Source of the DNA: a virus | Taxonomy: Duplodnaviria > Caudoviricetes | Direction: 5' to 3' (one strand) | IMG/VR virus record: IMGVR_UViG_3300013767_000084 | Coordinates: 1-38,838 of that record | DNA: 38,838 bases | In this document: positions 3,633 to 31,525 of the stretch, in pieces | Position numbering within the stretch: the first letter of the stretch is position 1 | Layout of the letters: every line of letters begins with the position of its first letter | Program-made: the position numbers and the translations under genes | The notes under the pieces: generated by a model | Told to the model about the DNA's origin: nothing | The model's database searches: none | What the model saw: only the letters and a program-made list of their open reading frames with translations

Positions 3633-3816
3633 GGCGCGGGCTCCTTTCCACACGAAATTCCGTTCCACCATTATACTTCATCATTATGGTTTCCACACGT
3701 TATTCCGATTACCCAGAAAAAGAAAAGGGCCGAGACACACGCCTCGGCCCGAATCCGTGCTTGCGACCGACTCACTCACAGGGCAAGGAGACACTGCTCA
3801 GCGACGCGCGCCGCAA

Positions 3817-3989: not shown

Positions 3990-4018
3990 AATTTACTGGT
4001 GTCCGGTCAGGATTTCAA
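3990..4018 (-). promoter_or_regulatory. pR'-like late promoter
   Basis: TTGAAA-17 bp-TAAATT at the end of the Q-like gene, followed by TACGCT (-10-like pause element) and a terminator. Confidence 0.7.
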
Positions 4019-5484: not shown

Positions 5485-5492
5485 GGATTGCC

Positions 5493-5843
5493 CTACCTGG
5501 TGACTGGCGTCGTGTCGAGCCGGTCGAAGTTGGAGAGGTCTTCCCACACGTCGCCGAGATTGGCGGCGCCGTCATAGGTGCCAATCCAGTGCTGCAGGGC
5601 CTCGTTGACCCGCATCTGGGCCGTGTAGTCGTGGTGATGGATGCTGACCAGCCGCAGCACCCGCGACTTGCCACGCCGGACCACAAACACCGCGAAGGGC
5701 GCACCGCCGCCCAGCACGCGCGATTTCACACGCGGCCAGGCAATCTCCAGCTCGCGGCGGGTGAGCGGCTTGCGCGGGCGCAGGACCAGCGCGCGCTTGA
5801 CGGGCCGCGGCGCAGCCATCGGCGCCAGATCAGTCCGCGTCAT
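5493..5843 (-). CDS. Hypothetical protein
   Basis: ORF fills the gap in the early operon, overlapping the cII stop. Confidence 0.6.
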   Translation of the reverse strand: MTRTDLAPMAAPRPVKRALVLRPRKPLTRRELEIAWPRVKSRVLGGGAPFAVFVVRRGKSRVLRLVSIHHHDYTAQMRVNEALQHWIGTYDGAANLGDVWEDLSNFDRLDTTPVTR

Positions 5844-6354
5844 GAGCACTCCCCTGCGGACGTTCGGCCGCCGCATCGATGGAGCGACAGAGCCGCATGA
5901 GCACCTGCGCGAGCTGCTCCGCCTCGAGCTGGATCTTCTCGCGCTCTTTCGCCGTGATGCGCCGATCCGCCGTCGCCGCAGTCACCTCCTGGATCACGTC
6001 GCCGAACTCGCGCGCCAGGTCGCCCACCTGCGCCATGATGTCCTTCGCCGTGACCTCGCCCGCATCCGTTCCCACATCGATCGCCAGCATGCCGTGCTGC
6101 CAGCACAGGGCGCGCAACGGCATCTTGGCGCCGGCATCGCCGCCCGCCTCCAGCAACTCGATGATCAGCGAGTACTCCTCGACCGACAGCAGATGCGTCT
6201 TGACCTCAGGCCGCAGCTTGCTGCGCAGCACGGCCGGCGACACCTGCTTATCCATCCGCTGGCCCAGCGCGATCGCCAGGCGCGGAATGCCGTACTTCAT
6301 CGCCCGGCTGTACAGCGCCTCGAGCGGGTCGATGTCGGAGTATTCGTACGTCAT
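5830..6354 (-). CDS. Phage regulatory CII-like protein (CP76/YmfL type)
   Basis: LRSKLRPEVKTHLLSVEE and DRRITAKERE motifs; directly downstream of cro. Confidence 0.8.
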   Translation of the reverse strand: MTYEYSDIDPLEALYSRAMKYGIPRLAIALGQRMDKQVSPAVLRSKLRPEVKTHLLSVEEYSLIIELLEAGGDAGAKMPLRALCWQHGMLAIDVGTDAGEVTAKDIMAQVGDLAREFGDVIQEVTAATADRRITAKEREKIQLEAEQLAQVLMRLCRSIDAAAERPQGSAHDAD

Positions 6355-6450
6355 GTGCAATTTCCAGATTTTTGAACGTGTTAACGACGCGGCACTTTGA
6401 TTAATCTCTCGCCTAACGCGGCAACGACCGCGACTCAGGGAGAAAAATCG

Positions 6451-6627
6451 ATGTATCAGCCAAAGCCGAAATTCCTACGGACCCTCACGCCGGCGCAGCG
6501 CAAAGCGCTGGACCGCCAGCGCCGCCACGCAGGGCAGCGCGTGGCAACGCCAGGGCACTCCCCCACCCCTGCCAAGCAGCCGGCCACTCCAGCTCGGGCC
6601 AGATCTCTCGCCAGTCCTTCGGCCTGA
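6451..6627 (+). CDS. Possible small basic protein antisense to the cro 3' end
   Basis: GGAGA RBS then MYQPKPKFLRTLTPAQRKALDRQRRH...; overlaps cro tail. Confidence 0.35.
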   Translation: MYQPKPKFLRTLTPAQRKALDRQRRHAGQRVATPGHSPTPAKQPATPARARSLASPSA

Positions 6628-6799
6628 GATCCACGCGCGAAACGCGCCCCTCGGTGTAGCGCTCGATCTGAACGCAACGCGCCGGAGGCGGCTCAACCCC
6701 GCGCGCCCACTGATGAATCAATGACTGGGACACGTCGATCGCCGCCGCGAACTCCTGCTGCGTCTGGCCCGCCTGTTTGAGGTAGGTATGAAGCTCCAT
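6485..6799 (-). CDS. cro: Cro-like HTH regulator (YdaS family)
   Basis: TQQEFAAAIDVSQSLIHQW HTH, IERYTEGRVSRVDLRP.DW..IWPEL signature; divergent from cI. Confidence 0.88.
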   Translation of the reverse strand: MELHTYLKQAGQTQQEFAAAIDVSQSLIHQWARGVEPPPARCVQIERYTEGRVSRVDLRPKDWREIWPELEWPAAWQGWGSALALPRAALRGGAGGPALCAAPA

Positions 6800-6807
6800 G
6801 GAGCGCG

Positions 6808-6887
6808 ATATTAGAAGTTCTAATCCATATGGTCAAGAGCACTTCTAATTGGGATGTCCTAGTCTTTAGTAGAGACTCTAATAAAAT
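6808..6887. promoter_or_regulatory. OR-like operator cluster with pR and pRM
   Basis: Operators ATTAGAAGTTCTAAT (6810-6824, palindrome), CAAGAGCACTTCTAAT (6834-6849), AGTAGAGACTCTAAT (6868-6882); pR TTGACC-17-TAATAT on minus strand; pRM -10 TAAAAT at 6882-6887. Confidence 0.85.
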
Positions 6888-6893
6888 CTCGCT

Positions 6894-7703
6894 ATGGCTA
6901 CCGTACCGAAACGCTCCCTTACCGCCGAAGAAAAGGCCGATGCGGACCGCTTGAATGCGGCCTGGCAGGCATACAAGCTCAAGTGCAAGGAAAAGGGGGA
7001 AAGTCCCACCCAGGAATGGCTGGGCTCCGTCACGAATCTTGGCGGCCAAAGCGCCGTGGGCCAGTATTTACGCGGCCTCATCCCCCTTAACCTCAAGGCA
7101 CTCGTCGCCATATGCAGCGCGATCGGCGCTCGCCCCGAGGAGATCAGTCCTCACCTCGCGGGCCCTTTGGCGGAGATTAGCAGGAATCATAATACTAGGG
7201 AAAACCCTGACAACGACAGTAGAAGTGCTAATTCTGCAGAGGCTTACAATTCCCCAACGGCCGGGGACAATTTCGAGGCGGGGCCAGACCTTCGCCCGCG
7301 ACGTTACCCGGAAATATCGTGGGTACAAGCGGGGTTATGGACGGTGATTGGCGAGAATTTTGTGCCGGACGAGTCAGTAGGATGGCACTACTGCCCGTTC
7401 GATTTGGGGGAGCAGGGCTACGTGCTTCGGGTCAAAGGCGTGTCGATGACAGCGCCGGCAGAGGCGCGGCACTCATTCCCGGAAAATACGCTGCTGTTCG
7501 TGAATCCGGATCTGGAGTCCGTGCCCGGCAAGTTTGTGGTGGTGGCACGCAACGGCAATGAGGCGACGTTCAAGCGGCTCACCCTGGTCGACGGCGAGCT
7601 GTTCCTCGAGGCACTGAATCCCGCCTGGCCAAACCGCTATATCCGCGTCGAGCCTGACCACCACTTCTGCGGCGTGGTCGTGTTCTCCGGCATGGCGCTG
7701 TAA
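6894..7703 (+). CDS. cI: CI repressor (HTH + S24 autopeptidase)
   Basis: TQEWLG..QSAVGQYLRG HTH; ISWVQAG cleavage site, VKGVSM (Ser) and ATFKRL (Lys) catalytic motifs. Confidence 0.95.
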   Translation: MATVPKRSLTAEEKADADRLNAAWQAYKLKCKEKGESPTQEWLGSVTNLGGQSAVGQYLRGLIPLNLKALVAICSAIGARPEEISPHLAGPLAEISRNHNTRENPDNDSRSANSAEAYNSPTAGDNFEAGPDLRPRRYPEISWVQAGLWTVIGENFVPDESVGWHYCPFDLGEQGYVLRVKGVSMTAPAEARHSFPENTLLFVNPDLESVPGKFVVVARNGNEATFKRLTLVDGELFLEALNPAWPNRYIRVEPDHHFCGVVVFSGMAL

Positions 7704-7721
7704 ATCAAAAAAGGCCGCATT

Positions 7722-8093
7722 TCAGCTGCCTTTCTTCTGCGCGGCGCCCACCGCCGCACTCTCCACCAGATCGAAGACGGCCACCAGGACCGCCTCGGCC
7801 TGCGCCGTCAGCAGGCCCGCTCGATCCATCTCCCCGATTCGATACACCAGGCGAACAGCCGCCTTGCTCATGGGTGGCAGCCCCACGTCGCCCGACATCA
7901 GATCGGCGAGCGACACACCAAAGACCCGCGCTACAGCCGGCCCGCGCTCGGCCGGCACCTCGCCACGACTCTTCCAGTTTGAGACAACGTTGCTCGAGAT
8001 ATTCAACTGCTGCGCGAGCCATGCCTGGCGCCGCCCTGCTCGAGCTAATAGCACCGCCACGCGATCCCACGGAATGAGCACTTTGTCGTCCAT
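7722..8093 (-). CDS. XRE-family HTH regulator (no peptidase domain)
   Basis: QAWLAQQLNISSNVVSNWKSRG HTH, VARVFGVSLADL; convergent with cI. Confidence 0.85.
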   Translation of the reverse strand: MDDKVLIPWDRVAVLLARAGRRQAWLAQQLNISSNVVSNWKSRGEVPAERGPAVARVFGVSLADLMSGDVGLPPMSKAAVRLVYRIGEMDRAGLLTAQAEAVLVAVFDLVESAAVGAAQKKGS

Positions 8094-8305
8094 AGGGCGC
8101 GACGGTAACGAGAAATAGTTGAGCGGAGTACCACGGTATGTGTTGCTACATGTACACACCTTGTTACATGCATGCCCACCCCATCACGCTAAATGTGCCG
8201 TATTGTATCCTTTTAGGAGTGTTACTAATACGCAACGGTGTTTTCCCGTACTGAATAATTTTCAGATCAGATTTCAGCACCGCGTCCGTGCATAAATGCG
8301 GTTTT

Positions 8306-8347
8306 ATTAGAAGTGCTCTTGCACCGTAGAATCAGAACTTCTAATAT
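8306..8347 (+). promoter_or_regulatory. OL-like operators and pL promoter
   Basis: 8306-8321 is the exact reverse complement of 6834-6849; ATCAGAACTTCTAAT at 8331-8345; TTGCAC-17-TAATAT. Confidence 0.85.
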
Positions 8348-8375: not shown

Positions 8376-8513
8376 ATGATCAAGAAGTACTGCAAAGGCC
8401 TGCCGCTCTACGTCGCCGCTGTGGCCGCCACCCTCCTCGCGCACGGCCTCGCTCAGTACTGGGACAACCAGGCCGAAGCGCAGCAGCCGACCACCCTGGC
8501 TCGCCACATCTGA
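8376..8513 (+). CDS. Small membrane protein, first gene of the pL operon
   Basis: GGAGA RBS; MIKKYCKGLPLYVAAVAATLLAHGLAQYWD hydrophobic segment. Confidence 0.6.
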   Translation: MIKKYCKGLPLYVAAVAATLLAHGLAQYWDNQAEAQQPTTLARHI

Positions 8514-8518
8514 TTCGC

Positions 8519-8737
8519 ATGCGGCCGCTGCCCTTTTCTCGCGAAGCCCTGATGGCGGAGTTCATCCGCATCGGCGGTAGCGGCCGCCCAGAAGATGCCA
8601 TTCGCATCCCTCAAATGCGCCTGAAGCTCATTGCGTCGATCAAGGCCCGGCTCAATGCCCAGCGGACCCAGCGCCGCCGCCCCGCCGCACGCCCCGTCAT
8701 CGACATCAAGCGCCTGCAAGCCAACGACCTCGACTGA
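8519..8737 (+). CDS. Hypothetical phage protein
   Basis: Basic 72-aa ORF in the operon, ending IDIKRLQANDLD. Confidence 0.65.
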   Translation: MRPLPFSREALMAEFIRIGGSGRPEDAIRIPQMRLKLIASIKARLNAQRTQRRRPAARPVIDIKRLQANDLD

Positions 8738-8747
8738 GGAAAAAACC

Positions 8748-9107
8748 ATGCTGATCGGACTCACCGGCCGCCCTGGTATCGGCCACAACGTTGTCGCCGA
8801 CTATCTCGCACGCGCCCACGCATTTACCCCCACCGAACGCATCACCGACGAGCTGGTCGACCAGCTCAGCGGCCACCACGTCGTCGTGACCGAGATCCGC
8901 GACCACGTGGACGCGGACATTCTGACTGCGCGCGGCGGCATCCTGGTGCATCTGTGCGATCCGTGCCTGCCGGACTTCGGCCCGGATAACGGCATCGTGC
9001 TGCGAGACATCGATCACCAGGTGACTGTGACCGTTGATTACTTCCACGCCTTCGACATGCTCGACCGGGTCATTGGCGACGCTCAGTTTTGCGAGGTCCT
9101 GGCATGA
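8748..9107 (+). CDS. Short dNMP-kinase-like protein with degenerate P-loop
   Basis: MLIGLTGRPGIGHNVVADYL, VVVTEIR, ARGGILVHL resemble phage deoxynucleotide monophosphate kinases; GAGGA RBS. Confidence 0.6.
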   Translation: MLIGLTGRPGIGHNVVADYLARAHAFTPTERITDELVDQLSGHHVVVTEIRDHVDADILTARGGILVHLCDPCLPDFGPDNGIVLRDIDHQVTVTVDYFHAFDMLDRVIGDAQFCEVLA

Positions 9108-9523
9108 GAAAGCGCAGCCGCTACCAGGTGCGAGCCAAATGCCTCCCGATGATGGGCTTTAACAAACGCCACGTTGAGCTGACGTATTACGCCGACCTGG
9201 TCGGCTTCATCAGCGCACCCACCGATACCGCCTACAACCGGCTGATGCGCACGCTGGAACTCGTCGCGGTGGCCATGGAGACGCAAAACATCCCGGATTA
9301 CCGCGTGCAACTGCGCTCGGCCAAGCTCGCCATGTCGGCCGTTTTCGATCGCAGCCTGCACACCGGCAAGGTCACGGTGCTGGACCTCGAAGCAATGACC
9401 CTGCGTGCAGCCGCCCCCGCCATCGAGCAAGCCATCAGCCGCATGCGCCTCGATACGTTCACAGAAGCCCACGCCATCACCAAGCTCGCCATGCAAGTGC
9501 AAGGCGCACCCGTCGAAGCCTGA
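9104..9523 (+). CDS. Hypothetical phage protein
   Basis: ATGA overlap with the upstream gene; 139 aa. Confidence 0.7.
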   Translation: MRKRSRYQVRAKCLPMMGFNKRHVELTYYADLVGFISAPTDTAYNRLMRTLELVAVAMETQNIPDYRVQLRSAKLAMSAVFDRSLHTGKVTVLDLEAMTLRAAAPAIEQAISRMRLDTFTEAHAITKLAMQVQGAPVEA

Positions 9524-9538
9524 CCCACAGGAAATCCC

Positions 9539-10555
9539 ATGACAAAGCATCGCCGCACCGGACGCGCCCCCTCCATTGACAGCATCGGCGCCCGCATCAC
9601 CGACGAGCAAGGATTGCGACTCGCCGCCACCTCGCGCGACAGCAAATTCTTCCGCAAATCACCCCGTATCCACGTCGACGATATCGCTGTGGACCAGATG
9701 GCCACCGCAATGAAAGCCAAGCTGGCCGAGAAGCGCGGCGAAGGCGGCGGCGGATGGGACAACCCACTGGAATGCTCAATCGAGCGCCTGGCACAGCTGA
9801 TGGCCGAAGCAATGTGCAAAGGCAAGCTGGTCAACGTGGCCAACTATGCCGCGATGCTGCGCGCTCGCGGCGCTGACGAGCAGCTCACGGCTGAGATCGC
9901 GATGCGCGCGTTCCTGCATGGCAGCCGTGAAGCAATGGAAGTCGTGGTGGCCATGCTCGACCGCGGCGAGTGGGCAGAGCATGTCGCCGCCACCACGGGG
10001 CGCAGCAATCCGCTGGCTCAGCGCCTGGAGGATGCCATCACCGACCTGCACAACGAGGCCTCCACCAACCGCGACATGCTGGACGACGCGCGCACAGAGC
10101 TCAATATGCTGCGCCAAGCGCTGGGTGTCGACGAGGAGCCTCACCAATCATTGCGGGAGCGGATGCTGGAAGCCGCGCAAACGACGCGCAATGCAGTCGT
10201 CTATCCCCCTGACGGAACGATCTCACCGTTCACAGTCATCAACCTCGGCCTCGGCCAGGTGCAGATGGGCGACTGCACCCATGACCAGCGCCTTCCAGCG
10301 TTGTGGTTCGGCAAAGATGGTAAGGGTATGGGCCATTTTGAAGTCCTGAACCGAGAGGCCAAGGAAGGCGAGACCATCGCTGTCGTCACGCTCTCAAACG
10401 TCGATGGGCTCGATGTGCTGCTTGATGTCGTGCAGCGCATCCGGCGTGAATCGTTTCCTGATGCCGCCCCCTCACCCTACGCCGCACCAGCCTCTACCGG
10501 CGCGCCGGAAGCGAGCATCGACGTCGCCTTGCGCACCAGCAAGGAGGGCGAGTAA
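9539..10555 (+). CDS. Mosaic hypothetical phage protein
   Basis: 338-aa ORF in operon; contains MKAKLAEKR..GGW..C..KG..VNVANYAAML block typical of accessory early phage proteins. Confidence 0.7.
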   Translation: MTKHRRTGRAPSIDSIGARITDEQGLRLAATSRDSKFFRKSPRIHVDDIAVDQMATAMKAKLAEKRGEGGGGWDNPLECSIERLAQLMAEAMCKGKLVNVANYAAMLRARGADEQLTAEIAMRAFLHGSREAMEVVVAMLDRGEWAEHVAATTGRSNPLAQRLEDAITDLHNEASTNRDMLDDARTELNMLRQALGVDEEPHQSLRERMLEAAQTTRNAVVYPPDGTISPFTVINLGLGQVQMGDCTHDQRLPALWFGKDGKGMGHFEVLNREAKEGETIAVVTLSNVDGLDVLLDVVQRIRRESFPDAAPSPYAAPASTGAPEASIDVALRTSKEGE

Positions 10556-10911
10556 TGGACACCCCGAACACACGCAAAACAGGTAAAACGCAAATACCCG
10601 CGATACAGGTAGAGAACGAGGTAGCACAACGATTCATCGACTCATCCCGCCCCGCCCTCGCCCGCACCGCGGCCATCCTGTGCGGCAACCCTGAGTTTCA
10701 ACGCTTCCTGTCCCTCCGATACGCGGCCGCCTGGAGACGACAAAGCCCCCTACCCGCTCACGACCGAGCCGCCAATGTCATCCGCGAAACTTGCGGCATT
10801 CAATCACGAAAGGAACTGGATTCCGATACGAAGGCAAAGCAGCGCTACCATCAATTGATCGGCCTACCGTTCAGCACTTGGCGGAATCACCGAGAAAACG
10901 CCACACCGTAG
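10555..10911 (+). CDS. Hypothetical phage protein
   Basis: TAATG overlap; AAILCGNPEFQRFL...IRETCGIQSRKELD. Confidence 0.7.
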   Translation: MDTPNTRKTGKTQIPAIQVENEVAQRFIDSSRPALARTAAILCGNPEFQRFLSLRYAAAWRRQSPLPAHDRAANVIRETCGIQSRKELDSDTKAKQRYHQLIGLPFSTWRNHRENATP

Positions 10912-10934
10912 CGCGACGGCAACGCCACAACGCA

Positions 10935-10959
10935 AAAGTGTCCCCAGGTGGGACACTTT
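10935..10959. repeat. 25-bp palindrome, candidate parS 1
   Basis: AAAGTGTCCC-CAGGT-GGGACACTTT just upstream of the parA promoter (TTGCCA-17-TATCGT, 10972-11000). Confidence 0.75.
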
Positions 10960-11033
10960 TTTATTTGCGCCTTGCCATTCAGGTTTTCCGCGTATATCGT
11001 TCACGCGTGTCAACTACAACGCACACGGAAACC

Positions 11034-11867
11034 ATGAACGCAGAAACGAAGAAGGCTAAGGTCATTGCGATCGTCAACCACAAGGGCGGCTGCGGCAAGA
11101 CCACCTCCACGGTCAACCTGGCCAGCGAATTCGCGCGGCAAGGCAACAGCGTGCTCGTCGTGGATCTTGACCCGCAGGCCAACGCCACGCTGCACATCGG
11201 TAATACCCACCCCTCCAAAGTGCCCGTGTCATCGGCCGAGCTGCTCACCGGCGACGACTCGATGCTGCCGCTGGCCGTCCAGGAGGAAACTACCATCGAG
11301 GGCGTGAGCCTGATCTCCGGCAGCCTCGCCCTGGGCAAGGCCGAAGACGAACTCAAGGACCTCTCCCCTCGCCCGAACGAAGAGCTGCGCAGCAAGCTGC
11401 AGCCCGCGATCGAGGTGTTTGATGTGATCCTGATCGACTGCCCACCGAGCCTCAAGCTGCTGGCCAGCAATGCGCTGGCCGCCGCTACACACGTAATCGT
11501 CCCAATCGAGGCCGGCGACCAGTACGGCCTGTATGGCGCCGAGGACCTGCTTAAGAAGGTCACGCAGATCCGTCGCATCAATCCGGAGCTCGAAATGCTC
11601 GGCGCCCTGCTGATCAAATATGACGATCGCCAGACGATCTGCAAGCTGCTCGCCGGCCAGGCCGAGAAGACGTTTGGCAAGCTGCTGCCAGAGAAGATCT
11701 CGCAAGGCACCGCTGTGCAGAAGGCCGCCGTCCTGAAGACCAGCACGCACGGCGTAGACCGCAGCTCGAAGCCGGCCCGACAGTTCCGCCAGTTGGCCGC
11801 CGCGCTGGCCAAGCAGCTACAGCTCAAGGTCAGCGATGACGTGCTGGCCGAGGAGGCCGCAGCGTGA
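11034..11867 (+). CDS. parA: ParA partition ATPase
   Basis: NHKGGCGKTT deviant Walker A, VDLDPQAN, LIDCPPSL. Confidence 0.96.
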   Translation: MNAETKKAKVIAIVNHKGGCGKTTSTVNLASEFARQGNSVLVVDLDPQANATLHIGNTHPSKVPVSSAELLTGDDSMLPLAVQEETTIEGVSLISGSLALGKAEDELKDLSPRPNEELRSKLQPAIEVFDVILIDCPPSLKLLASNALAAATHVIVPIEAGDQYGLYGAEDLLKKVTQIRRINPELEMLGALLIKYDDRQTICKLLAGQAEKTFGKLLPEKISQGTAVQKAAVLKTSTHGVDRSSKPARQFRQLAAALAKQLQLKVSDDVLAEEAAA

Positions 11868-12742
11868 GCAAGAACCTCAAGGCACTGCTCGCGCAGCAGG
11901 CGGAGATCAACCGGAAGACGCACCACGAGGCGGAGTTTGCCGACGACTTCGACATCGGCCGCAAGCACACCAAGATTCCGCTCGACCGCATCACCCCGAA
12001 TCGCTTCCAGCCGCGCCTGGCGTTCTCCGACGAGAGCCTGCGCGACCTAGCTGAATCCATCGCACAAATCGGCCTCACGCAGCCCATTACGGTGCGCCAG
12101 GTCGATGATGGCTACGAGTTGATCGCCGGCGAGCGCCGCCTGCGCGCCCATCGCCTGCTGAACAAGCCAACCATCGAGGCCATCGTGGTCGACGCTGATG
12201 ACGGTCAGTCAGCCGCCATGGCGCTGTCAGAAAACATCGACCGCGAGGGCCTCACGGACTTCGAGATTGCCGAAGGCATACGCCAGCTCGAAGAGCAGTT
12301 CCCCAAGCGCAGCCATCTGGCGAAGGCCCTGAACCTGGTACGGTCTGAACTGTATCGCTATCTTGCGTTCCGTGAGTTACCCGGCGACGTCATTGAGCGC
12401 CTGCGCATGCGGCCAGACCTGATCGGGAGGAGGGCGGCCAGCGACATCGTCCAGGCGATCAAGGATGCACCAGCACTCGCTGACCGACTGAACGAAGCCC
12501 TGGACCAGGTCGCCGATAACAAGCTGGAGCAGGGCAGGGTGGTCGCCTTCCTGCGGCAGTCGGACACCAAGGTAGCGAACAAGCCGGAGCCGATCGTGCT
12601 GAAGCAGGGCAGGGCGCGCATTGGCACGATCGCACGCACCCCAACCGAACTGGTGATCAAGGTCTCGCACCAGGCGCTGCCGCAGGAGAAGGCCGAGAAG
12701 CTGCAAGCCTTCCTGGAGGAACTACTGGAAGAGGGCGCCTGA
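11864..12742 (+). CDS. parB: ParB partition protein
   Basis: PNRFQPR, GLTQPITVR, ELIAGERRLRA, ENIDRE, HTH; GTGA overlap with parA. Confidence 0.96.
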   Translation: MSKNLKALLAQQAEINRKTHHEAEFADDFDIGRKHTKIPLDRITPNRFQPRLAFSDESLRDLAESIAQIGLTQPITVRQVDDGYELIAGERRLRAHRLLNKPTIEAIVVDADDGQSAAMALSENIDREGLTDFEIAEGIRQLEEQFPKRSHLAKALNLVRSELYRYLAFRELPGDVIERLRMRPDLIGRRAASDIVQAIKDAPALADRLNEALDQVADNKLEQGRVVAFLRQSDTKVANKPEPIVLKQGRARIGTIARTPTELVIKVSHQALPQEKAEKLQAFLEELLEEGA

Positions 12743-12767
12743 AAAGTGTCCCACCTGGGGACACTTT
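12743..12767. repeat. 25-bp palindrome, candidate parS 2
   Basis: AAAGTGTCCC-ACCTG-GGGACACTTT immediately after the parB stop. Confidence 0.78.
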
Positions 12768-12771
12768 GCCG

Positions 12772-13130
12772 CGCATATGTGGGGGCGCCTACCTGTGGAC
12801 AAAGCCTGTGGACAGCCGCATTTTTCCCCGCATATGTGGGGGCGGTCAATCGCATATGTGGGGGCAGGGCTGCCGCATATGTGGGGGCGCTTTTTCGCAT
12901 ACGTGGGGGCATGGCCTCGCATATGTGGGGGCGAAAATACCACATAAGCCATTGATCCAGCAGGAAAAAGCATGCTCTCTAGGTTTTGCTTTTAGCAGTA
13001 GGTTTTCTTATAGCTTTGCTAGTAGGGCGCATCGCTGCAGTGGACAACCTGTCGGTTGCCCACCTTTCGCGAAGCGCGCGACGAGCTGATGACAGACTGA
13101 ACATCAAAACAGAGCGCCCCCACTTATGCG
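12772..13130. other. Plasmid iteron origin (oriV)
   Basis: CGCATAYGTGGGGG at 12772, 12829, 12851, 12874, 12896, 12918 (22-23 bp period for the last five); DnaA-box-like TGTGGACAA/TGTGGACAG at 12794 and 12807; AT-rich tract about 12960-13025; inverted iteron at 13117-13130. Confidence 0.88.
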
Positions 13131-13194
13131 ACGTGGGGTGCCGGACAGTGCTATGTTGCCAACCGAGACGATGAGGAGCAGGGGAGTGCAAGCA

Positions 13195-14202
13195 ATGGAT
13201 GACAAGGCTTCCGAAACCTTCGAGCTGACGCCCCCGCCCATGGAAGTTCCTGCCAAGCCCAAACGCAGGTATGCGCCACGCAATGCGGTTAGTCCCGAGA
13301 TCGACGATCGCCTGGTCAAGGAGGCCCGCGCTATCGAGGCGGAGGACGCGTTCCGGGCCGGCCTGACGGGTTACATGGGCCGCACGCTGGTGCAGGCCAC
13401 TCTGCCGTATCGGGAGCCACCCCGGACGCTGGAGGTATGGGAGCGAGTCGTCGGACAGACGAGCCTGATCATCAAGCAAGGCCACACGAAGAACAGGGCA
13501 GGGCAGTGGCAGCGCATCGGGTATCCGTACGGTTCCTATCCGCGGCTGATGCTCGCATGGATTGGGGCAGAAGTGGTACGCACGCGTGAGCGGACGATTG
13601 TGCTCGGCGATAGCCTGGCGTCATTCATGGCCGAGCTCGGCATCGGCGAACACCGCAGCGGCGGCAAGAACGGCGCCCGCACACGCCTGCGCGACCAAAT
13701 GATGCGCCTCTTCCTGGCCGACATCTCCGCCCAGCTCGGCGGCGCCTCGACGGAAGAGAATCTGCATATGAAGAACCTCGACGTCGCCGAGAACGCCAAC
13801 CTCTTTTGGTCCCCCACCAATCCGGACCAAGCTGGCCTCTGGCAATCCACTATCCTGCTGGGCGAAACGTTTTTCGAGGAGACCAAGGCCAACCCGGTAC
13901 CGGTCGACCTGCGCGCGCTGCGGGCGCTGCGCTCCTCACCGATGGCGCTCGACCTGTACTGCTGGATGACCTATCGGTACTTCTCGCTCAAAGACACCAC
14001 GACCGTCCCGTGGAGCGCCCTGCACGAGCAATTCGGCAGCGAGACCAAGACGCTCAAGAAATTCCGCGAGAACTTCCTGCCGGCGCTGAAGAAGGTGATG
14101 ACGGTGTATCCCGCAGCCAAAGCCACACCGCAGGCGGCAGGGCTGTTCATGGAACCGTCGAAGACCAGCGTGCCCAAGCGCATCAAGGACTGGCAGAAAT
14201 AA
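13195..14202 (+). CDS. repA: Plasmid replication initiator RepA (RepA_C-like)
   Basis: LVQATLPYR, GYPYGSYPRLMLAWI, RLRDQMMRLF, PVPVDLRAL..SPMALDLYCWMTYR, VPWSALHEQFG; next to iterons; start uncertain (ORF open from 13126). Confidence 0.92.
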   Translation: MDDKASETFELTPPPMEVPAKPKRRYAPRNAVSPEIDDRLVKEARAIEAEDAFRAGLTGYMGRTLVQATLPYREPPRTLEVWERVVGQTSLIIKQGHTKNRAGQWQRIGYPYGSYPRLMLAWIGAEVVRTRERTIVLGDSLASFMAELGIGEHRSGGKNGARTRLRDQMMRLFLADISAQLGGASTEENLHMKNLDVAENANLFWSPTNPDQAGLWQSTILLGETFFEETKANPVPVDLRALRALRSSPMALDLYCWMTYRYFSLKDTTTVPWSALHEQFGSETKTLKKFRENFLPALKKVMTVYPAAKATPQAAGLFMEPSKTSVPKRIKDWQK

Positions 14203-14203
14203 A

Positions 14204-14228
14204 AAAGTGTCCCACCTGGGGACACTTT
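14204..14228. repeat. 25-bp palindrome, candidate parS 3
   Basis: Identical to 12743-12767, immediately after the repA stop. Confidence 0.78.
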
Positions 14229-14245
14229 CATTGAGAGGAGGACTG

Positions 14246-14518
14246 ATGGCGAATCCAATCGAAACAACCGACGGGCCGCTCGGCCGCGCCTGGGCCGACT
14301 ACCGGGATCTGCTGCAAGCATGCGGCGCCCCGGAGGACCAGGTCCAGCAGATGCGCAATGCCTTCCTGACCGGCGCCACGCTGGTGTTCCGCATGCTCAT
14401 GCACGCCGAAGCGGTCGAGGACGTGAAGGGCGGACCGGCCATGGCGGAACGCATTCGCACCACGCTCCGCGCGGAGGTGGATCGCTTCGATCTAGAGACG
14501 CGAATGCAGTGGGATTGA
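14246..14518 (+). CDS. Hypothetical protein
   Basis: Strong GAGGAGG RBS; 90 aa with QMRNAFLTGA motif. Confidence 0.7.
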   Translation: MANPIETTDGPLGRAWADYRDLLQACGAPEDQVQQMRNAFLTGATLVFRMLMHAEAVEDVKGGPAMAERIRTTLRAEVDRFDLETRMQWD

Positions 14519-14541
14519 GGGACACCGTCACCCCTCCCGCT

Positions 14542-14569
14542 GGTTCTTATAACAATCCTTATGTCAAAA
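14542..14569 (+). other. dif-like XerC/XerD recombination site
   Basis: GGTTCTTATAA-CAATCC-TTATGTCAAAA; 11-6-11 layout matching E. coli dif GGTGCGCATAA-TGTATA-TTATGTTAAAT. Confidence 0.75.
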
Positions 14570-14932
14570 ATGAGAATTTGCGCAATCGCGGCCGCGCTTG
14601 GGTTGGGGACCGTAATCCTGCCAGCCCACGCCCTTAGCATTGATTCGTACCTTGCGTTTCGCGACGCCCGCGACCGCTCTGTGGCGACGGGCGTCAATGC
14701 CTACCTGGAAACGGTCGTCGATACCTTGCGCCTTGCGAACATTGCACTGGAGGAGGACGGGCGACAGAAGCTGTATTGCGCGCCCGCCAACATCGAGACG
14801 ACAACCGACCGCACCGGCATGGCCAAGATGGTCCTCGACCGCGCCATAGGCTCCAAGCTTGTCAAGCCAAACGACAACGTCGGCGTTGCTCTGCTGACCA
14901 CCCTGCAGCTGGTGTATCCCTGCCAGCGCTAG
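14570..14932 (+). CDS. Secreted small protein, Rap1a/Tai-like
   Basis: Signal peptide ending AHA; AYLETVVD, YCAP and C-terminal YPC pattern; alternative start 14561. Confidence 0.55.
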   Translation: MRICAIAAALGLGTVILPAHALSIDSYLAFRDARDRSVATGVNAYLETVVDTLRLANIALEEDGRQKLYCAPANIETTTDRTGMAKMVLDRAIGSKLVKPNDNVGVALLTTLQLVYPCQR

Positions 14933-15852
14933 CGTTTCTTCGTACCAGCGGGCTTTTCCGCCGGCGCCGCGGCTTCCTCGCCGGCCGGCGCGACCGGCAC
15001 CGCCCGCAGGGCCCGCACGGCGTCCAGCTCGCTGCGCACGGCGTCCAGCTCGGACTGCGTGTGGCGCAGCTGGTATTCCGCCGTCGACAGCTTGGCATTG
15101 ACCTCGTAGGTCGCGCCCTGCTGCTTGTGGAAGCTGTCGGACAGGTCCTGACCATATTTGCGCTGGACGGTCAGGTCCTTTTCCACCTTGGCCAACTCGG
15201 CCTCGACGTGCACGCGCGCGGCCACTTCTGCCTCGCGCTTCGCCTCGGCCACCGCCGCGGCCTGCTCGGCCACCACGCGCCCGGCACGCTCCCGGTCTAA
15301 CTCAACCCGCACCGCGGCCAGATCCGCCTCCAGGCGCGGCATCGCCTCCAGACGCAGCAGCGCCTTGGCCAATTCCGTGCGCGCGCCCTCGGCGGCATGA
15401 CGCTCCTGCTCGACCTCATCCCGCAGCTTGGCCTGAATCTCCTCGAGCTGCTCCACGCGACCGACGAGCGCATCGCGCTCCGACTTCACTGCATCGCGCT
15501 CGACCTCGAGGTCAGCGATCACCGCGGTCTGGCGCTCGCTTTCCGTGACCAGGTCCGCGTTGGTCTGCTGCAGCTCGGCCAGTTCCGCAGTCTGCCCGGC
15601 CTTGTCCGTCGCCGCCGCCTTCTCGATGTCGTCGACCAGGCTGCGCAGGGACCCCAGCAAGGTGAGCGGCGTCTCGGCCGGCGGCTTGACCTGTCCGCCC
15701 TTCCAGATATCGAGCAGGCGCATCACCGTGGCGTTGCTGCCGGTGCCCAGGCGCTCGCGCACCGCGCGCACCGTGGGCTTGACGCCATCGGCGCGCAGCG
15801 CGTCGGCGGCGGCGTTGACCTGCTCCTGCGTGATGGTGGCTTCCCGTGCCAT
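14929..15852 (-). CDS. kfrA: KfrA-like plasmid DNA-binding coiled-coil protein
   Basis: ITQEQVNAAADALRADGVKPTVRAVRERLGTGSNATV (KfrA_N) followed by a long coiled coil. Confidence 0.88.
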   Translation of the reverse strand: MAREATITQEQVNAAADALRADGVKPTVRAVRERLGTGSNATVMRLLDIWKGGQVKPPAETPLTLLGSLRSLVDDIEKAAATDKAGQTAELAELQQTNADLVTESERQTAVIADLEVERDAVKSERDALVGRVEQLEEIQAKLRDEVEQERHAAEGARTELAKALLRLEAMPRLEADLAAVRVELDRERAGRVVAEQAAAVAEAKREAEVAARVHVEAELAKVEKDLTVQRKYGQDLSDSFHKQQGATYEVNAKLSTAEYQLRHTQSELDAVRSELDAVRALRAVPVAPAGEEAAAPAEKPAGTKKR

Positions 15853-15863
15853 AACATTTCTCC

Positions 15864-15903
15864 CGTTCGTTTCGTTCTGTTTCGTTACGAATGTTATGTT
15901 ATG
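15864..15903. promoter_or_regulatory. Short-period repeat upstream of kfrA, candidate autoregulatory operator
   Basis: CGTT-CGTTT-CGTTC-TGTTT-CGTTA-CGAA-TGTTA-TGTTA, roughly 5-bp period, AT-rich, directly before the kfrA start. Confidence 0.55.
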
Positions 15904-15922
15904 AATTCGGGAAGCGCAAGGA

Positions 15923-16516
15923 CTACCCACCGGCGGCCGGCGGATCGACTACGGCGTCGAGCCGGTCGCGGACGGCGTTGTAGAGGTCGATGCAGGTGTT
16001 GGCGTCGCGGATGCCCCGGTCGCCGTCGCGGGCGAGGGCGTCGAGAGCTGCTGCAGCCTCTGGAGCAAGTTCGGCTCGCGCTTCACCAGGTCCGCCGGCA
16101 GCGGCGGGATCTGCGGGGGCGCCACCGTCACTGGCCGGACAGGCACGGACGGCGAGGGACAGCCGGCGAGTGCCAGCACGATAGGCAGCCAGAGCCGCCG
16201 CAGCCGATGCTTGTTCATCCTCTCGTTCCTTTCTGGCTTTCGCCATGATGTGGTCGACGTCGCTGCGCATGGCAGCCTCAGCCTCCCGATACTGCTTGGC
16301 CTGGCTGGCCTCGCGCAGCGCCGCAGCGGCCAGCTCCTCGGCCTGTGCCCCGCGCAGGCTGGCCAGCTCGCGCTCGTAGCGATTGGCCTGCCAGTGCCAA
16401 GCACCGGGCCCGGCAATCGCACCACCCAGCACCACCCCGATCCCGAACAGCAGGGCATAGCCCTCCCAGCCCGAGAACGCCTCCAGCACCGCCTTAAGTA
16501 GTCTTGCCACGGCCAC
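15923..16516 (-). CDS. Rz-like inner-membrane spanin
   Basis: N-terminal TM, coiled coil, RRLSLAVRAC, RAELAPEAA...GDRGIRDANTCIDLY; follows holin. Confidence 0.85.
   Translation of the reverse strand: MAVARLLKAVLEAFSGWEGYALLFGIGVVLGGAIAGPGAWHWQANRYERELASLRGAQAEELAAAALREASQAKQYREAEAAMRSDVDHIMAKARKEREDEQASAAAALAAYRAGTRRLSLAVRACPASDGGAPADPAAAGGPGEARAELAPEAAAALDALARDGDRGIRDANTCIDLYNAVRDRLDAVVDPPAAGG
15949..16218 (-). CDS. Rz1-like outer-membrane lipoprotein spanin, embedded in Rz
   Basis: MNKHRLRRLWLPIVLALAGC lipobox then Pro-rich sequence, alternative frame inside Rz. Confidence 0.85.
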   Translation of the reverse strand: MNKHRLRRLWLPIVLALAGCPSPSVPVRPVTVAPPQIPPLPADLVKREPNLLQRLQQLSTPSPATATGASATPTPASTSTTPSATGSTP

Positions 16517-16790
16517 CCCCTTGTTTGTTCATCCACCGCTTGAGCCACAGCTCCAGGTACTGGCTGCCGACAATGCCCAGCGCGCAGCCGATGCCGTAGA
16601 GCGCCATCGGCGGCAGGTCCGGGAACTGCGCCAGGCCCACCCCCGCCACCATCGAGGTGGCCGCCCCCAGTAGCGCGCGACCGAGGATCAGCCGCAACGT
16701 GATGGGGTCATTGCTGACCAGCAGCTTGCCGATACCGATGACGGCGCCCATGACCAGCAGCACATACAGCGATTGCTCTTCTTTTTGCAT
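16494..16790 (-). CDS. Holin (P2 gpY-like)
   Basis: 98 aa, about three TM segments, GKLLVSNDPITLRLILGRALLG, basic C-terminus. Confidence 0.85.
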   Translation of the reverse strand: MQKEEQSLYVLLVMGAVIGIGKLLVSNDPITLRLILGRALLGAATSMVAGVGLAQFPDLPPMALYGIGCALGIVGSQYLELWLKRWMNKQGGGRGKTT

Positions 16791-16811
16791 GCGACCCGTT
16801 CCTTGTGGTGG

Positions 16812-17453
16812 TTATGCGTGGAGGAATTGCTGGGCGATGCCCCAGCGCCGACGCCGGTCGACCAGGCCATTGAGGCCGCCATTGATGCGCCGCGTGAGCT
16901 GCTCGAAGTCGCCCCGGTCCGCGAGCTGGTTGCAGCCGTTGGCGTACCAGAACCACGCCGCGGAGCGCGCCGCCAGCGCGTCATCGGTGGCCAGCCGATC
17001 CGGCTGCGCGACCAGGTCGACGCCGAGCGCGTGCCCGCAGGCCTCGTAATTGGCGCAGAACGTGATTTGCTTGAGCCCCCGACCGCGGTAGCGCCACCCG
17101 TCGCCGCTGGCCGCCTCGCCGTTGCCGTAGCGCTTCGCATAGACGATCGCGGCGATCCGCGCCTGGCGCTCGGCCGGCACGCTGCGCTCGCCCGGCTGGC
17201 GGCCGAGCTGCGCGGCGATCGCCGGCGTGAGGCGCTGACCGAACGTCGACACCAGCGCCGGCACCGCGTAATCGAAGGACTCCACCAGTGAGGTAAAGCC
17301 ATTCGATTCATGCCCCACCTGGCCAATCCAGGCAGCGACGCGGTGCGGGGCCACAATGCCAAACTCGAACAACGCCTTGTCCACATGCGGCCACCAGCGC
17401 GCGGCCAGTGCCTCGCTGAGACCTGCGGCTTGTCGAAACACGTCTTGATCCAT
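16812..17453 (-). CDS. Endolysin, glycoside hydrolase family 19
   Basis: AAWIGQVGHESNGF, GDGWRYRGRGLKQIT, AARSAAWFW, TRRINGGLNGLVDR. Confidence 0.93.
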   Translation of the reverse strand: MDQDVFRQAAGLSEALAARWWPHVDKALFEFGIVAPHRVAAWIGQVGHESNGFTSLVESFDYAVPALVSTFGQRLTPAIAAQLGRQPGERSVPAERQARIAAIVYAKRYGNGEAASGDGWRYRGRGLKQITFCANYEACGHALGVDLVAQPDRLATDDALAARSAAWFWYANGCNQLADRGDFEQLTRRINGGLNGLVDRRRRWGIAQQFLHA

Positions 17454-17535: not shown

Positions 17536-18651
17536 CTACGCGGCGCGCGGCGCCGGCGGCGGCTCAGGGGGCGCGAGCACCGCCTTTAACCGGAGGACCG
17601 GGGCCTCCAGCAGGCGCCAGGACAGCCACGCCATCGCCAGCGCCCCGGCGAGGGACACGCCGACCCCCAGCACTGAGGCCCACGCCGGCACAGCGCCAGG
17701 GAAGAGCGCCTTCGCCCGCTCCACCTTCGAGAGATCGGGTACGAACGGGTGGAACAGGTAGAAGCCATAGCTGATGCGACCGATGCCGGCTAGCCACCCG
17801 GTCTCCAGCCAGCGGATCAGCCCCGTTTCGCCGTTCGCCGCGATCCAGCACACCAGCCCGGCCACGCACACGCCATAGGTGACGCGAACCAGCGCCGAGA
17901 GCATCGGATCCACCGACGCCTGCCATGCCACCTCGTTGGCGCAGAAGAGCGCGACGCCACTGAGCAACGCCACCAGGACGAGCGGATGTTGCAGCGCTCG
18001 ACGGCCGCCCAGGCCCTGCGGCGCGCACAGACAGTAGCCCAGCCCGCCCAGACCGAGCAGCCAGAAGTTGGTGAGCGGGTGGGTATAGATCAGGATCTCC
18101 CTGGCCCCGGCCACCTTGAAGCCAAAGACCGCGACGACGCCCACCGCCACCACCGCCAGGCAGACCTGCCAATGCCGCCGCGCGGGCACCGCGAGCAGCA
18201 GCGGCGCGAAGAACAGATAGAACTGCTCCTCGATGGAAAGGCTCCAGAAATGCGAGAACACCCCCGCCCACTCCTGCCGCACATAGGCAATCCATAGATT
18301 CGACAGGTAGGCGAAGTGATAGGGCAGTCCCCCGGCAAACTCACGCTTGAGCGCACCGATCGCCACCAGGATCGACAGCGCCACCAGCAGCAGGTAATAC
18401 ACCGGGAAGATTCGCACCGTCCGGCGAACCAGAAAGGTCTTGAGCTCCCCGCCGAAGCCACCACCGCGCACCTCGATGCGCCGGCGCTGCCCCATCAGGA
18501 TGCCGGTGATCAGATACCCACTCAGCGCAAAGAAGAGCCACACCCCCAGCTGGCCCACGCCGCCACCTGGCACCGTCACGCGGTGGTGCAGGAAGACCAG
18601 CAGTACGGCGATGGCCCGCAGGCCATCAAAGCCCCGGATTCGATCTGTCAT
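17536..18651 (-). CDS. Acyltransferase family 3 (OafA-like membrane O-acyltransferase) 1
   Basis: FDGLRAIAVLLVFLHH, GVWLFFALSGYLI, RRTVRIFP, HFWSLSIEEQFY, GRISYGFYLFH; multi-TM; start uncertain (ORF open to 18693). Confidence 0.93.
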   Translation of the reverse strand: MTDRIRGFDGLRAIAVLLVFLHHRVTVPGGGVGQLGVWLFFALSGYLITGILMGQRRRIEVRGGGFGGELKTFLVRRTVRIFPVYYLLLVALSILVAIGALKREFAGGLPYHFAYLSNLWIAYVRQEWAGVFSHFWSLSIEEQFYLFFAPLLLAVPARRHWQVCLAVVAVGVVAVFGFKVAGAREILIYTHPLTNFWLLGLGGLGYCLCAPQGLGGRRALQHPLVLVALLSGVALFCANEVAWQASVDPMLSALVRVTYGVCVAGLVCWIAANGETGLIRWLETGWLAGIGRISYGFYLFHPFVPDLSKVERAKALFPGAVPAWASVLGVGVSLAGALAMAWLSWRLLEAPVLRLKAVLAPPEPPPAPRAA

Positions 18652-18815
18652 TGGCAATGACTCGGCTCCCATAAACGTCGACGGATTATGCAAAATCTGC
18701 CGAATCTGGCCCGCTCCTGGCTCGCGGGTAAAATGCCAAAATTGTTGTAATCATCAAAAACGCAAGGTGCCGCCTCACGACCGCCCGCACCGCGCATCCC
18801 GCCAGAGGACTCCTC

Positions 18816-19952
18816 ATGCTTTCGCTACGACGCTTCGCCAGCCTCTCCGCCGACCACTCGTCCTTCATTGCCGCCTGCCGAGGCGCCGCCGCACTGATCG
18901 TGCTGCTGGCCCACCTGCAGCAGGTCTTCCTCGCCCCGTTCTGGACCGGCTCGTATGCCTACTGGCTGCTGGTGGCGCAGTTCTCCGTGATGGTCTTCTT
19001 CGTGCTCAGCGGCTTCCTGATCGGTAAGTCGATCACCAAGAAGACCGCCTCCGGCCAGTTCTCGCTGGTCGCCTACGGCGCGGACCGCGCGTGGCGGATC
19101 CTGCCGCCGCTGGCGCTGGCCTTCGTCGTGATGCTGGGGCTCGCCCCGCTGGCGCCGCACACGTTCCCCAGCGGCACCCCCGCTTTCCTGCCGACCAGCG
19201 GCTATGTGGTCGTCCGGGAATTCACGGTGCAGGCCCGCGAGTTCCTGACCGCCGCCCTGTTCCTGAACGGGTTCTTCGGGTCGAGCCCGTTGATCAATGG
19301 CCCACTGTGGAGCCTGTCGTTCGAGGTGTGGCTGTACGTCATTGCGGCGCTGGTCGTCGCCGGGCGCACCTCGCGGCTCAGCCTGGCTGGCGTGGCGATC
19401 CTGTTCGTCGTGCTGTCCGTGCGCAACCACAACTTCGCGGCCTACGGCATCGTGTGGGCCTCCGGCTTCGTGCTGTGCCTGCTGCATAACAACCAGCGCC
19501 TTGGCGGCTGGATCCGCACGGCACTGACCGGGCTGGCCCCGGTAGCACTGGCCTGCGCGCTGCTGCTGGCCTGGCAGTACGTCGCCCAGGTCGCCCGCTT
19601 CCCCGATCCGCGCTCGGCCGACTACCGCTACGTGATTGCCTTCAACGTCTTCATCGGCCTGGCGTTCTGCGGCCTGCTCGGCCTGCTGCTGGACCGACGC
19701 GCGCCGACCCTGCGCTGGCTGACGGGCAGTGCCGACTACTCGTACACCCTGTACATCGTTCACTACCCGATCCTGCTGTTCACATTCGGCGCCTTCCAGC
19801 CGGCCATGCAGGCATCGATGGGCACGCTGGCGGCGATCAGCCTGGTGACGCTGGCCGGGATCGTGCTTTTCGCGCGCACGGCCGCCCGAGTCGTGGAACA
19901 CCGCCCGACCCTGCTGCGCCTGTTCGGCGTGGCCACCCAGGCCCGCGCATGA
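18816..19952 (+). CDS. Acyltransferase family 3 membrane O-acyltransferase 2
   Basis: RGAAALIVLLAH, VMVFFVLSGFLI, DRAWRILPP, NGPLWSLSFEVWLY, SYTLYIVHYP. Confidence 0.92.
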   Translation: MLSLRRFASLSADHSSFIAACRGAAALIVLLAHLQQVFLAPFWTGSYAYWLLVAQFSVMVFFVLSGFLIGKSITKKTASGQFSLVAYGADRAWRILPPLALAFVVMLGLAPLAPHTFPSGTPAFLPTSGYVVVREFTVQAREFLTAALFLNGFFGSSPLINGPLWSLSFEVWLYVIAALVVAGRTSRLSLAGVAILFVVLSVRNHNFAAYGIVWASGFVLCLLHNNQRLGGWIRTALTGLAPVALACALLLAWQYVAQVARFPDPRSADYRYVIAFNVFIGLAFCGLLGLLLDRRAPTLRWLTGSADYSYTLYIVHYPILLFTFGAFQPAMQASMGTLAAISLVTLAGIVLFARTAARVVEHRPTLLRLFGVATQARA

Positions 19953-20644
19953 GCCGCCGGCCCAGGCTGGCGGCCTGGTGCTTCGCCGCGGCGCTGATGC
20001 CACTGGTGGTGAGCTGCCCGCGCGCAGCAGGCCCCATCGAGGTGATCGAGCGCCCGCTCTACCGCCAGGGACTCGCCGAACACCTGCGGACCGACCCGGG
20101 CGTGCCGCCCGGCGCCGTGCTGCTGATCGGTGACAGCATCGTCCACAACATCCCGGCCGACCTGACGCCCTGCCCGCACTGCGTCAACTACGGCATCGTC
20201 GGCGACACGACCGCCGGCATGCGCGCACGCCTGCCGCGTTACGCGTCCCTGCCGCAGGCGACGACGGTGGTCCTCGAAGGCGGCATCAATGACCTGCCGT
20301 TCGGGCGCGGCTTCGATACCCAGATCGTCGACAACTACCGGGCGATGCTGCAGGCCATCCCGACTACCGCCCGCGTGCTGCTGGTCGGGATCCTGCCGGT
20401 CGACGAAACGGCCCCATTCACCCGCCCGGGCTGGACCGCCCGCATCGCCCACATTAACCAGGCACTGACCGCACTTTGCCTGGCACAACAGCACTGCACG
20501 CGCGTGGAGGCCCATGCGCTACTGGCCGCCGAGGACGGCAACCTGCGCCCCGACTTCCATGGCCGCGACGACGGCGTCCACCTGAGCCGCAGCGGCTACG
20601 CCGCCTGGCTCCCGGTATTGCACGCGGCGCTCGCGGAACGCTGA
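19949..20644 (+). CDS. SGNH/GDSL-family protein, exported (possible lipoprotein)
   Basis: LIGDSI, NYGIVGDTT, EGGINDL, DGVHLS blocks; hydrophobic N-terminus ending LVVSC; ATGA overlap with acyltransferase 2. Confidence 0.9.
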   Translation: MSRRPRLAAWCFAAALMPLVVSCPRAAGPIEVIERPLYRQGLAEHLRTDPGVPPGAVLLIGDSIVHNIPADLTPCPHCVNYGIVGDTTAGMRARLPRYASLPQATTVVLEGGINDLPFGRGFDTQIVDNYRAMLQAIPTTARVLLVGILPVDETAPFTRPGWTARIAHINQALTALCLAQQHCTRVEAHALLAAEDGNLRPDFHGRDDGVHLSRSGYAAWLPVLHAALAER

Positions 20645-31504: not shown

Positions 31505-31525
31505 GTGGCTTTTCCTCTCAGGACG

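Follow-up and report, generated by a model that had tools for sequence, protein, structure and literature searches.

The 38,838-nucleotide stretch of DNA analysed here (IMG/VR record IMGVR_UViG_3300013767_000084; hereafter the window) carries the genes of a lambdoid tailed phage together with a parA-parB-oriV-repA-kfrA block. By sequence, this plasmid maintenance module lies at the end of the pL-type early operon, no recombinase is recognisable, and a single XerC/XerD site resembling dif stands behind repA (14542-14569). We consider it likely that the element is a temperate phage whose lysogen is a low-copy circular plasmid in Cupriavidus and whose dimers are resolved by host XerC/XerD at that one site. 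The site is what is new here; the plasmid-prophage lifestyle is already known.

The element is read as a circular phage-plasmid with a RepA_C iteron replicon, as an earlier note on this DNA had proposed, because the finished assembly of an isolate includes a nearly identical replicon as a circular plasmid and because integrating kin hold int in the slot that the block occupies here. Among 72,556 plasmids searched, one covered at least 80% of the block, and it is the closest relative: plasmid unnamed3 of Cupriavidus oxalaticus X32 (NZ_CP038638; hereafter the X32 plasmid), a finished circular replicon of 37,950 bp from an isolate. Both are circles of about 38 kb with the same early order and replicon (parA-parB-iterons-repA; RepA 86%, ParA 98.5%, ParB 89%, cI 80%), palindromes, a dif-like site, lysis genes and no recombinase found. 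Their virions differ, the X32 plasmid having a contractile Mu-like tail and an S49 head whereas the window has a non-contractile tail and an S78 head. Overall, 17 of the 48 window genes match (at least 35% identity, at least 50% coverage), nucleotide coverage is 28%, and the X32 plasmid has two palindromes against three in the window. Its kfrA (locus L001, 681-1547) looks frameshifted, and the PLSDB gene table does not list it.

The window is the entire IMG/VR record and has a 191-nt direct repeat at both ends (1-191 and 38648-38838), with a single mismatch at position 92. The repeat lies inside terL, which starts at 256, enters the repeat and resumes in frame at the opposite end. Since the two terL pieces overlap in frame across the repeat, the contig closes into a circle of 38,647 bp, in agreement with the closure claimed earlier. 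IMG/VR labels the record 'linear' and 78% complete, and the finished X32 plasmid is likewise labelled 'linear', at 82%. Logan contigs from one study (run X1), perhaps the source sample and possibly virion DNA, were also compared with the window. The only contig listed there over position 92 has the base of the other repeat copy, so that the mismatch probably reflects an end error or a co-occurring related terL. Among the X1 Logan contigs no spanning contig is listed for the circular junction, and no host junction was found among the loose ends shown, the majority not being shown. Separately, a related terminase, about 90% identical and at about twice the depth, was seen in X1 against window positions 1-300 and 38200-38700, marking a second related phage.

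The partition and replication block and its slot

The block opens with palindrome 1 (10934-10960), a likely parS or operator just 5' of the parA promoter that also scores as a terminator. A sigma-70-like promoter candidate for parAB follows on the plus strand (10972-11000), with 9 of 12 matches, which alone is not above chance. ParA, a Walker-type partition ATPase (11034-11867, plus strand), and ParB (11864-12742, plus strand) precede palindrome 2 (12742-12767), a likely parS, and a likely oriV (12772-13130, plus strand). This region contains six direct 15-bp iterons (12772-12932), five of them at 22-23 bp spacing, an inverted copy at 13116, DnaA-box-like motifs at 12794, 12807 and 13039, and an AT-rich stretch (12936-13040, 44% GC); these origin features between parB and repA are kept in four of four aligned members. 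RepA (Pfam RepA_C, PF04796; 13162-14202, plus strand) has a start that is uncertain among nearby ATGs, the database call being 335 aa, and is followed by palindrome 3 (14203-14228), another likely parS that is absent from the X32 plasmid. The three palindromes, the only sites on the circle with arms of at least 10 bp, flank parA, parB and repA. A plasmid initiator, an origin and a partition system are thus all present by sequence. The ends of the par-ori-rep block (10935-10971 and 14192-14228, palindromes 1 and 3 plus flank) also form a 37-bp, 95% inverted repeat, and the block is oriented alike in all four members. Assignment to the Bsr partition families of Burkholderiales, whose 16-bp palindrome has a central CG, was rejected, since those of the window have a 4-5 bp centre that lacks this dinucleotide.

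Behind repA lie a small open reading frame (ORF) of no family (14246-14518, plus strand), the dif-like site, an ORF with a hydrophobic N-terminus whose Rap1a-like predicted fold is a lead only (14561-14932, plus strand), and a gene for a KfrA-like DNA-binding coiled-coil protein (KfrA_N; 14929-15852, minus strand), with short AT-rich repeats upstream of it (15860-15905). The slot and the genes named by the earlier note are therefore confirmed, but its single parA-parB-oriV-repA-kfrA unit is not, because kfrA is on the opposite strand, convergent on the replicon, and is separated from repA by two ORFs and the Xer site. The ORF at 14561-14932 begins inside the Xer site, and relatives have different small ORFs there, suggesting a variable cargo slot. 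The par/rep/xrs block (xrs, Xer recombination site), of roughly 3.6 kb, is a candidate low-copy vector for Cupriavidus.

Replicons of this kind form a narrow group. RepA falls in a tight set of seven clusters at 78-100% (window included), the named ones belonging to C. oxalaticus, C. necator and C. basilensis. Every cluster lies on contigs of 7-45 kb (maximum 45,148 bp), and the next matches reach at most 57%. Scans of genome and metagenome contigs with RepA gave distant matches only, 50,697 phage records yielded one unrelated 3.9-kb record, and neither a kfrA scan nor a parS-iteron pattern scan of viral contigs found anything. Besides the X32 plasmid, three circular contigs share the early backbone of the window, each with direct terminal repeats. 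Two from IMG/VR, G001 (45,148 bp) and G003 (36,365 bp), carry the par-ori-rep-kfrA block as in the window, palindrome 3 included, with a different lambda-type head and a contractile tail, respectively. The third, G004 (40,474 bp; TerL 87% and KfrA 74% to the window), has parA-parB-Rep3 in the slot; inside its pL operon it also carries a reverse transcriptase gene (RVT_1; locus L036, 10373-11878).

Integrating kin place a different cassette at the same point. Four IMG/VR relatives (G005 and proviruses G008-G010) and Ralstonia phage Dina have an integrase in the slot. G005 and Dina share the control region with the window and have the integrase where the pL operon ends; that of Dina is a tyrosine integrase. 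The last pL gene of the window (10555-10911) has homologues both in free circles, where parA follows, and in G008-G010, where a tyrosine integrase lies about 1-1.5 kb behind it. Dina and the three proviruses have cII, the O-position gene and pL-operon genes in common with the window in varying combinations but lack a par/rep block. As the integrase stands behind the pL operon in all five, the claimed position holds, and on sequence evidence the slot is a swappable lysogeny cassette that takes an integrase, a RepA_C replicon or a Rep3 replicon; virion modules are swapped as well. In trees of six backbone genes (6-7 rows), only the O-position gene splits the five plasmid types from two integrating ones (100/99). 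The other five were unresolved or mixed, so we claim no direction for the swap.

A plasmid source of the module is suggested by pRMAN01, an ordinary 190-kb plasmid of Ralstonia mannitolilytica, which has the order integrase-parA-parB-iterons-repA, with iterons related to those of the window and, over the 19.6 kb examined, seven copies of the palindrome core. Unlike the window, it has its own integrase adjoining parA and no Xer motif in those 19.6 kb. This arrangement would fit a plasmid origin.

A chimera of phage and plasmid, fused in assembly at the palindromic repeats, would also place such a block in a phage genome. Contigs of run X1 do end at palindromes 1 and 3, with a 28-base overlap only and the end joins of the block unbridged, and a related terL is present in the sample at higher depth. 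This explanation is nevertheless barely credible: identical joins occur in three independent assemblies, one of them a finished isolate plasmid, and the long X1 pieces have even depth (about 5-8).

Other candidate relatives were set aside. Plasmid pChV1 and two Vibrio circles have only parAB or one small gene in common with the window and encode their own recombinases, and G006 shares only cI/cro in the parts read. Two circular phage-like plasmids of Vibrio (38-41 kb), pVPGX2 and HDW18 p_unnamed2, have dif-like motifs (L052, 27633; L053, 19066) despite encoded recombinases. An unrelated circular contig, G007 (L022; 41,156 bp), carries a baseplate hub gene, ParA, RepA_C (53%), iterons, an RNA ligase and a helicase; it has dif-like sites, matches neither tyrosine nor serine recombinases, and from its sequence is probably a second, independent type of Xer-using phage-plasmid.

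The dif-like site and the search for a recombinase

The site at 14542-14569 (plus strand; GGTTCTTATAACAATCCTTATGTCAAAA), missed by the earlier note, occurs once in the window and consists of an 11-bp arm, a 6-bp centre and a second 11-bp arm. It shows the features by which xrs/dif sites are recognised, namely two 11-bp arms, a centre of 6-8 bp, palindromic inner bases and a best-conserved XerD arm. The XerD (right) arm is identical at 10 of 11 bases to Burkholderia mallei dif and to C. necator dif2, and the columns conserved among members are the inner bases of both arms plus the XerD arm, matching the published dif pattern. A core motif taken from the site has one match in the window at up to one mismatch and none in 100 shuffles; at two mismatches, 3 of 100 simulations gave a match. 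Because this motif was built after viewing the sites of the window, the X32 plasmid and G001, independent support comes from G004 and from the match to published dif sites. Four of the five recombinase-free circles have the site (window, X32 plasmid, G001 and G004); in the last three, of which G004 is the Rep3 member, it stands right behind rep. Neither of the two whole integrase-bearing genomes (G005 and Dina) has the motif, nor was it found in the 12-13 kb loci of G008-G010.

Profiles of four families (PF00589, PF00239, PF07508 and PF16684) gave no six-frame match in the window, which upholds the earlier observation that no tyrosine recombinase, serine recombinase or protelomerase is present; the corresponding controls were positive in 14, 13, 6 and 3 of 14 genomes. 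The 48 ORFs and the start piece of terL cover 94% of the circle, the largest gap being the 419-bp origin, and no recombinase appeared among the 48 ORFs in Pfam or PHROGs or among 22 ORFs in NCBIfam. PF00589 and PF00239 were searched in all five circles, and PF07508 and PF16684 in the window, G001 and the X32 plasmid. The protelomerase that marks N15-type telomere phages (PF16684) was found in none of those three, nor the Cre-type tyrosine recombinase of the P1 group in the window. Two large unnamed ORFs (9539-10555 and 4417-5484) were considered as substitute recombinases and are unlikely to be such, since both have homologues in the integrase-bearing Dina and G005. Lack of an encoded recombinase does not rule out site-specific recombination, and the conserved dif-like site points to host XerCD.

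The same site could serve as attP if the phage had a dual mode, replicating as a plasmid and also integrating at chromosomal dif through host XerCD, as CTX, VGJ, TLC and GGI do. It is located where attP and int sit in integrating kin; the G004 site closely resembles C. necator dif2, in the two arms as well as over the first three bases of the spacer; and Xer-exploiting integrative elements tolerate partial spacer mismatch. However, none of the four published Cupriavidus dif spacers listed (4 of 7 Ralstonia rows) agrees with CAATCC, the spacer of the window, though the host's own dif may differ, and spacers differ among members. No RepA-clade member lies on a contig above 45 kb, no integrated copy was seen, and the X32 plasmid is free in its isolate. 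An active iteron replicon within a chromosome would moreover need silencing. In run X1 the site is unbroken, a contig covering 14199-15007 crossing it without difference; this is weak evidence, because the run is perhaps the source sample and perhaps virion DNA. We regard the dual mode as improbable, although integration at dif is the chief rival of the plasmid reading. An equally low estimate applies to a tailed double-stranded DNA phage family that, without its own recombinase, would use one host-XerCD site both for dimer resolution and for integration and excision at dif. If that were true, the elements would be hybrids of phage-plasmids and integrative mobile elements exploiting Xer (IMEX), with freely swapped lysogeny cassettes (integrase, RepA_C or Rep3) and virion modules.

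Several points weigh against a circular lysogen kept monomeric by Xer. Extrachromosomal state is seen for the X32 plasmid through its finished assembly, while the window is known from a closed metagenome contig alone, and such circularity can also result from phage DNA that is replicating or ligated at cos. The host, probably Cupriavidus, is assigned from relatives only, and ParB has a 57% relative on a contig of 5.48 Mb. Medium-sized enterobacterial plasmids (30-100 kb) tend to be without Xer sites. XerCD would be activated by FtsK or by accessory sequences, and the window has seven FtsK-orienting polar sequence (KOPS) motifs, too few to show a bias. The site of G003 is degenerate, with no match at two mismatches, and the site always stands just 5' of a small ORF, so that it could in part be promoter sequence. 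The last two points, together with the variable spacer and XerC arm, would suit a circular plasmid lysogen in which the dif-like site is a non-functional relic or a promoter, dimers are not resolved and loss is offset by reinfection. We find this unlikely, as the conserved columns follow the published dif pattern, a change of replicon to Rep3 leaves the site in place, and integrase-bearing kin lack it. In G003 the divergent kfrA and moron genes are separated by a perfect palindrome (11+6+11, core ATAA-N6-TTAT; L014, about 14789-14816), possibly a substitute Xer site or an operator.

Virion, lysis and control modules

Pfam and PHROGs matches across the 48 ORFs identify terS, HNH, terL, portal, S78 protease, HK97-type capsid, connectors, tail tube, chaperones, tape measure, endolysin, holin, spanin, cI, cro, cII and Q. 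The window thus holds by sequence the full virion, packaging, lysis and lysogeny gene set of a phage-plasmid, together with the cI-cro-cII-(O)-Q control, HK97-type head and terS/HNH of a lambdoid, HK97-type phage, the identity of O being a lead only. The HK97-type head (terL, portal, S78 protease, capsid), connectors, non-contractile tail, tape measure, tail tip and fibre occupy 20843-38647 (minus strand), and the lysis genes (Rz-like spanin, holin, GH19 endolysin) 15923-17453 (minus strand). Between lysis and tail fibre genes, 17536-20644 holds two divergent acyltransferase_3 (O-acetyltransferase-like) genes and a GDSL esterase, likely surface-polysaccharide modification morons; G003 has a similar-looking ORF next to its lysis genes (L014, about 15280-16390).

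The control region (4007-8159) comprises Q, the O-position gene, cII, cro, cI (6894-7703, with an S24 domain) and an extra helix-turn-helix gene, and the pL-type early operon (8376-10911, plus strand) follows, with no int, xis or attP found at its end in recombinase-family searches of the window. A 42-bp inverted repeat pair (6808-6849 and 8306-8347) brackets cI and the extra helix-turn-helix gene and is likely to represent the OR and OL operators. The O-position gene (4417-5484) is a likely lytic initiator, given a weak NCBIfam replication match and Atlas neighbours with DnaT or RepA_N domains; it has no clear iterons inside it, and no P-type loader was found in the window. An AlphaFold model of its protein made without alignment was uninformative (mean predicted local distance difference test score 44.9) and was not used for a fold search. 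Rfam gave no matches in the window.

Also missed earlier was an ISL3 (ISRso21-like) insertion sequence (IS) at 1726-3714 (minus strand), with a DDE transposase (1728-3110), a methyltransferase, 24-bp imperfect inverted ends and an 8-bp target duplication, the hallmarks of the family. In run X1 one contig (827-8112) passes through it without a break, and there is accordingly no sign there of a further identical copy at high abundance. The element sits between a candidate late promoter (4018-3990) plus terminators and the HNH/terminase genes. This position counts against a working phage, because an IS within the predicted late transcript may cripple it. The claim of intact head, tail, lysis and cI/cro modules accordingly stands for ORF length only, all being full length. 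A defective remnant, that is, a plasmid with phage genes that no longer makes virions, for instance through the IS blocking late transcription, would agree with this position and with the decay of P1-like phage-plasmids into plasmids. We judge it unlikely: the head, tail and lysis ORFs are all full length, the IS interrupts no ORF and runs in the direction of the late transcript, and relatives retain complete but different virion modules.

For a plasmid lysogen with Xer resolution, what is established for iteron replicons, type I partition, lambdoid control and Xer suggests how the parts would work together. CI would keep the lytic promoters silent, and parAB and repA would be transcribed from promoters of their own. 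RepA would bind the iterons and open the AT-rich stretch together with DnaA, and the inverted iteron 5' of repA may mediate autorepression. ParB would load on the three palindromes, one of them at the parA promoter, ParA would segregate the copies, and KfrA may be accessory. XerCD would recombine the two site copies within a dimer, which is the job of Cre/lox in P1. Upon SOS induction, CI would cleave itself through its S24 domain, lytic replication would probably start from the separate O-position initiator, and Q would switch on the late genes, with DNA packaged into the HK97-type head.

Relation to known phage-plasmids

P1 has a separate lytic initiator, as the window probably does, and a genome much larger than the window; N15 has scattered palindromic centromere sites, a layout that the likely parS palindromes of the window resemble. 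Like P1, the element would be a circular low-copy prophage with RepA, origin and ParA/ParB, and its replicon logic (iteron Rep plus ParA/ParB) is P1-like; P1, however, resolves dimers by its own Cre/loxP, and no Cre-like gene was found in the window. No P1-like record stood among the top terL or RepA matches. With N15 it has in common lambdoid virion and control genes and a plasmid lifestyle, but N15 is linear with TelN, whereas the window has no protelomerase match and its relatives are circular. The published systems compared here and cited above are described in the literature (PMC7969092, PMC10879196, PMC12977533, PMC2731167, PMC11724359, PMC5450999, PMC3091744, PMC7157519, PMC5357621, bioRxiv 2024.09.03.610885).

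Burkholderia phage KS14 (PMC3091744) is a small circular plasmid prophage of Burkholderiaceae (32,317 bp, shown by plasmid preparation) with ParA and an initiator; unlike the window, it is P2-like, with a RepB-type initiator and its own serine recombinase. About 20% of cluster A mycobacteriophages carry parABS replacing the integration cassette at the same position, as in RedRock and Miko, where the partition/replication cassette is colinear with the integration cassette and both kinds occur in close kin (PMC7157519). These phages differ in infecting Actinobacteria and, mostly, in lacking RepA, and that paper makes no mention of Xer or dimer resolution. Given KS14 and the cluster A swaps, both the lifestyle and the integrase-to-par swap were already known. 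The earlier description of the element as unlike either P1 or N15 was thus overstated, the more so as its replicon is P1-like and the X32 plasmid is already catalogued.

The earlier note had suggested a comparison with published phage-plasmid groups. The X32 plasmid is listed under the VP882 community: it is row 7866 of the supplement of Pfeifer and Rocha 2024, labelled 'VP882_comm, P-P', a label on 47 entries. A rough score resembling weighted gene repertoire relatedness (wGRR) is 0.23 between the window and the X32 plasmid, the sole member compared, against a VP882 community mean of 0.1. The supplements of PMC9600943 gave no match. A literature search limited to listings and abstract starts returned no account either of this group of Cupriavidus elements or of phage-plasmids with host-Xer sites.

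Phage-plasmids include many singletons and loose communities. An element so far catalogued in a loose community can here be placed in a definable group: five or more Cupriavidus-type circular phage-plasmids whose integrating relatives differ from them at a single slot. This opens the change from integrative to plasmid lysogeny, or the reverse, to comparison in Proteobacteria, much as in cluster A mycobacteriophages. The Xer site, for which no counterpart appears in the literature listings searched, may offer a testable answer to how recombinase-free circular phage-plasmids remain monomeric.

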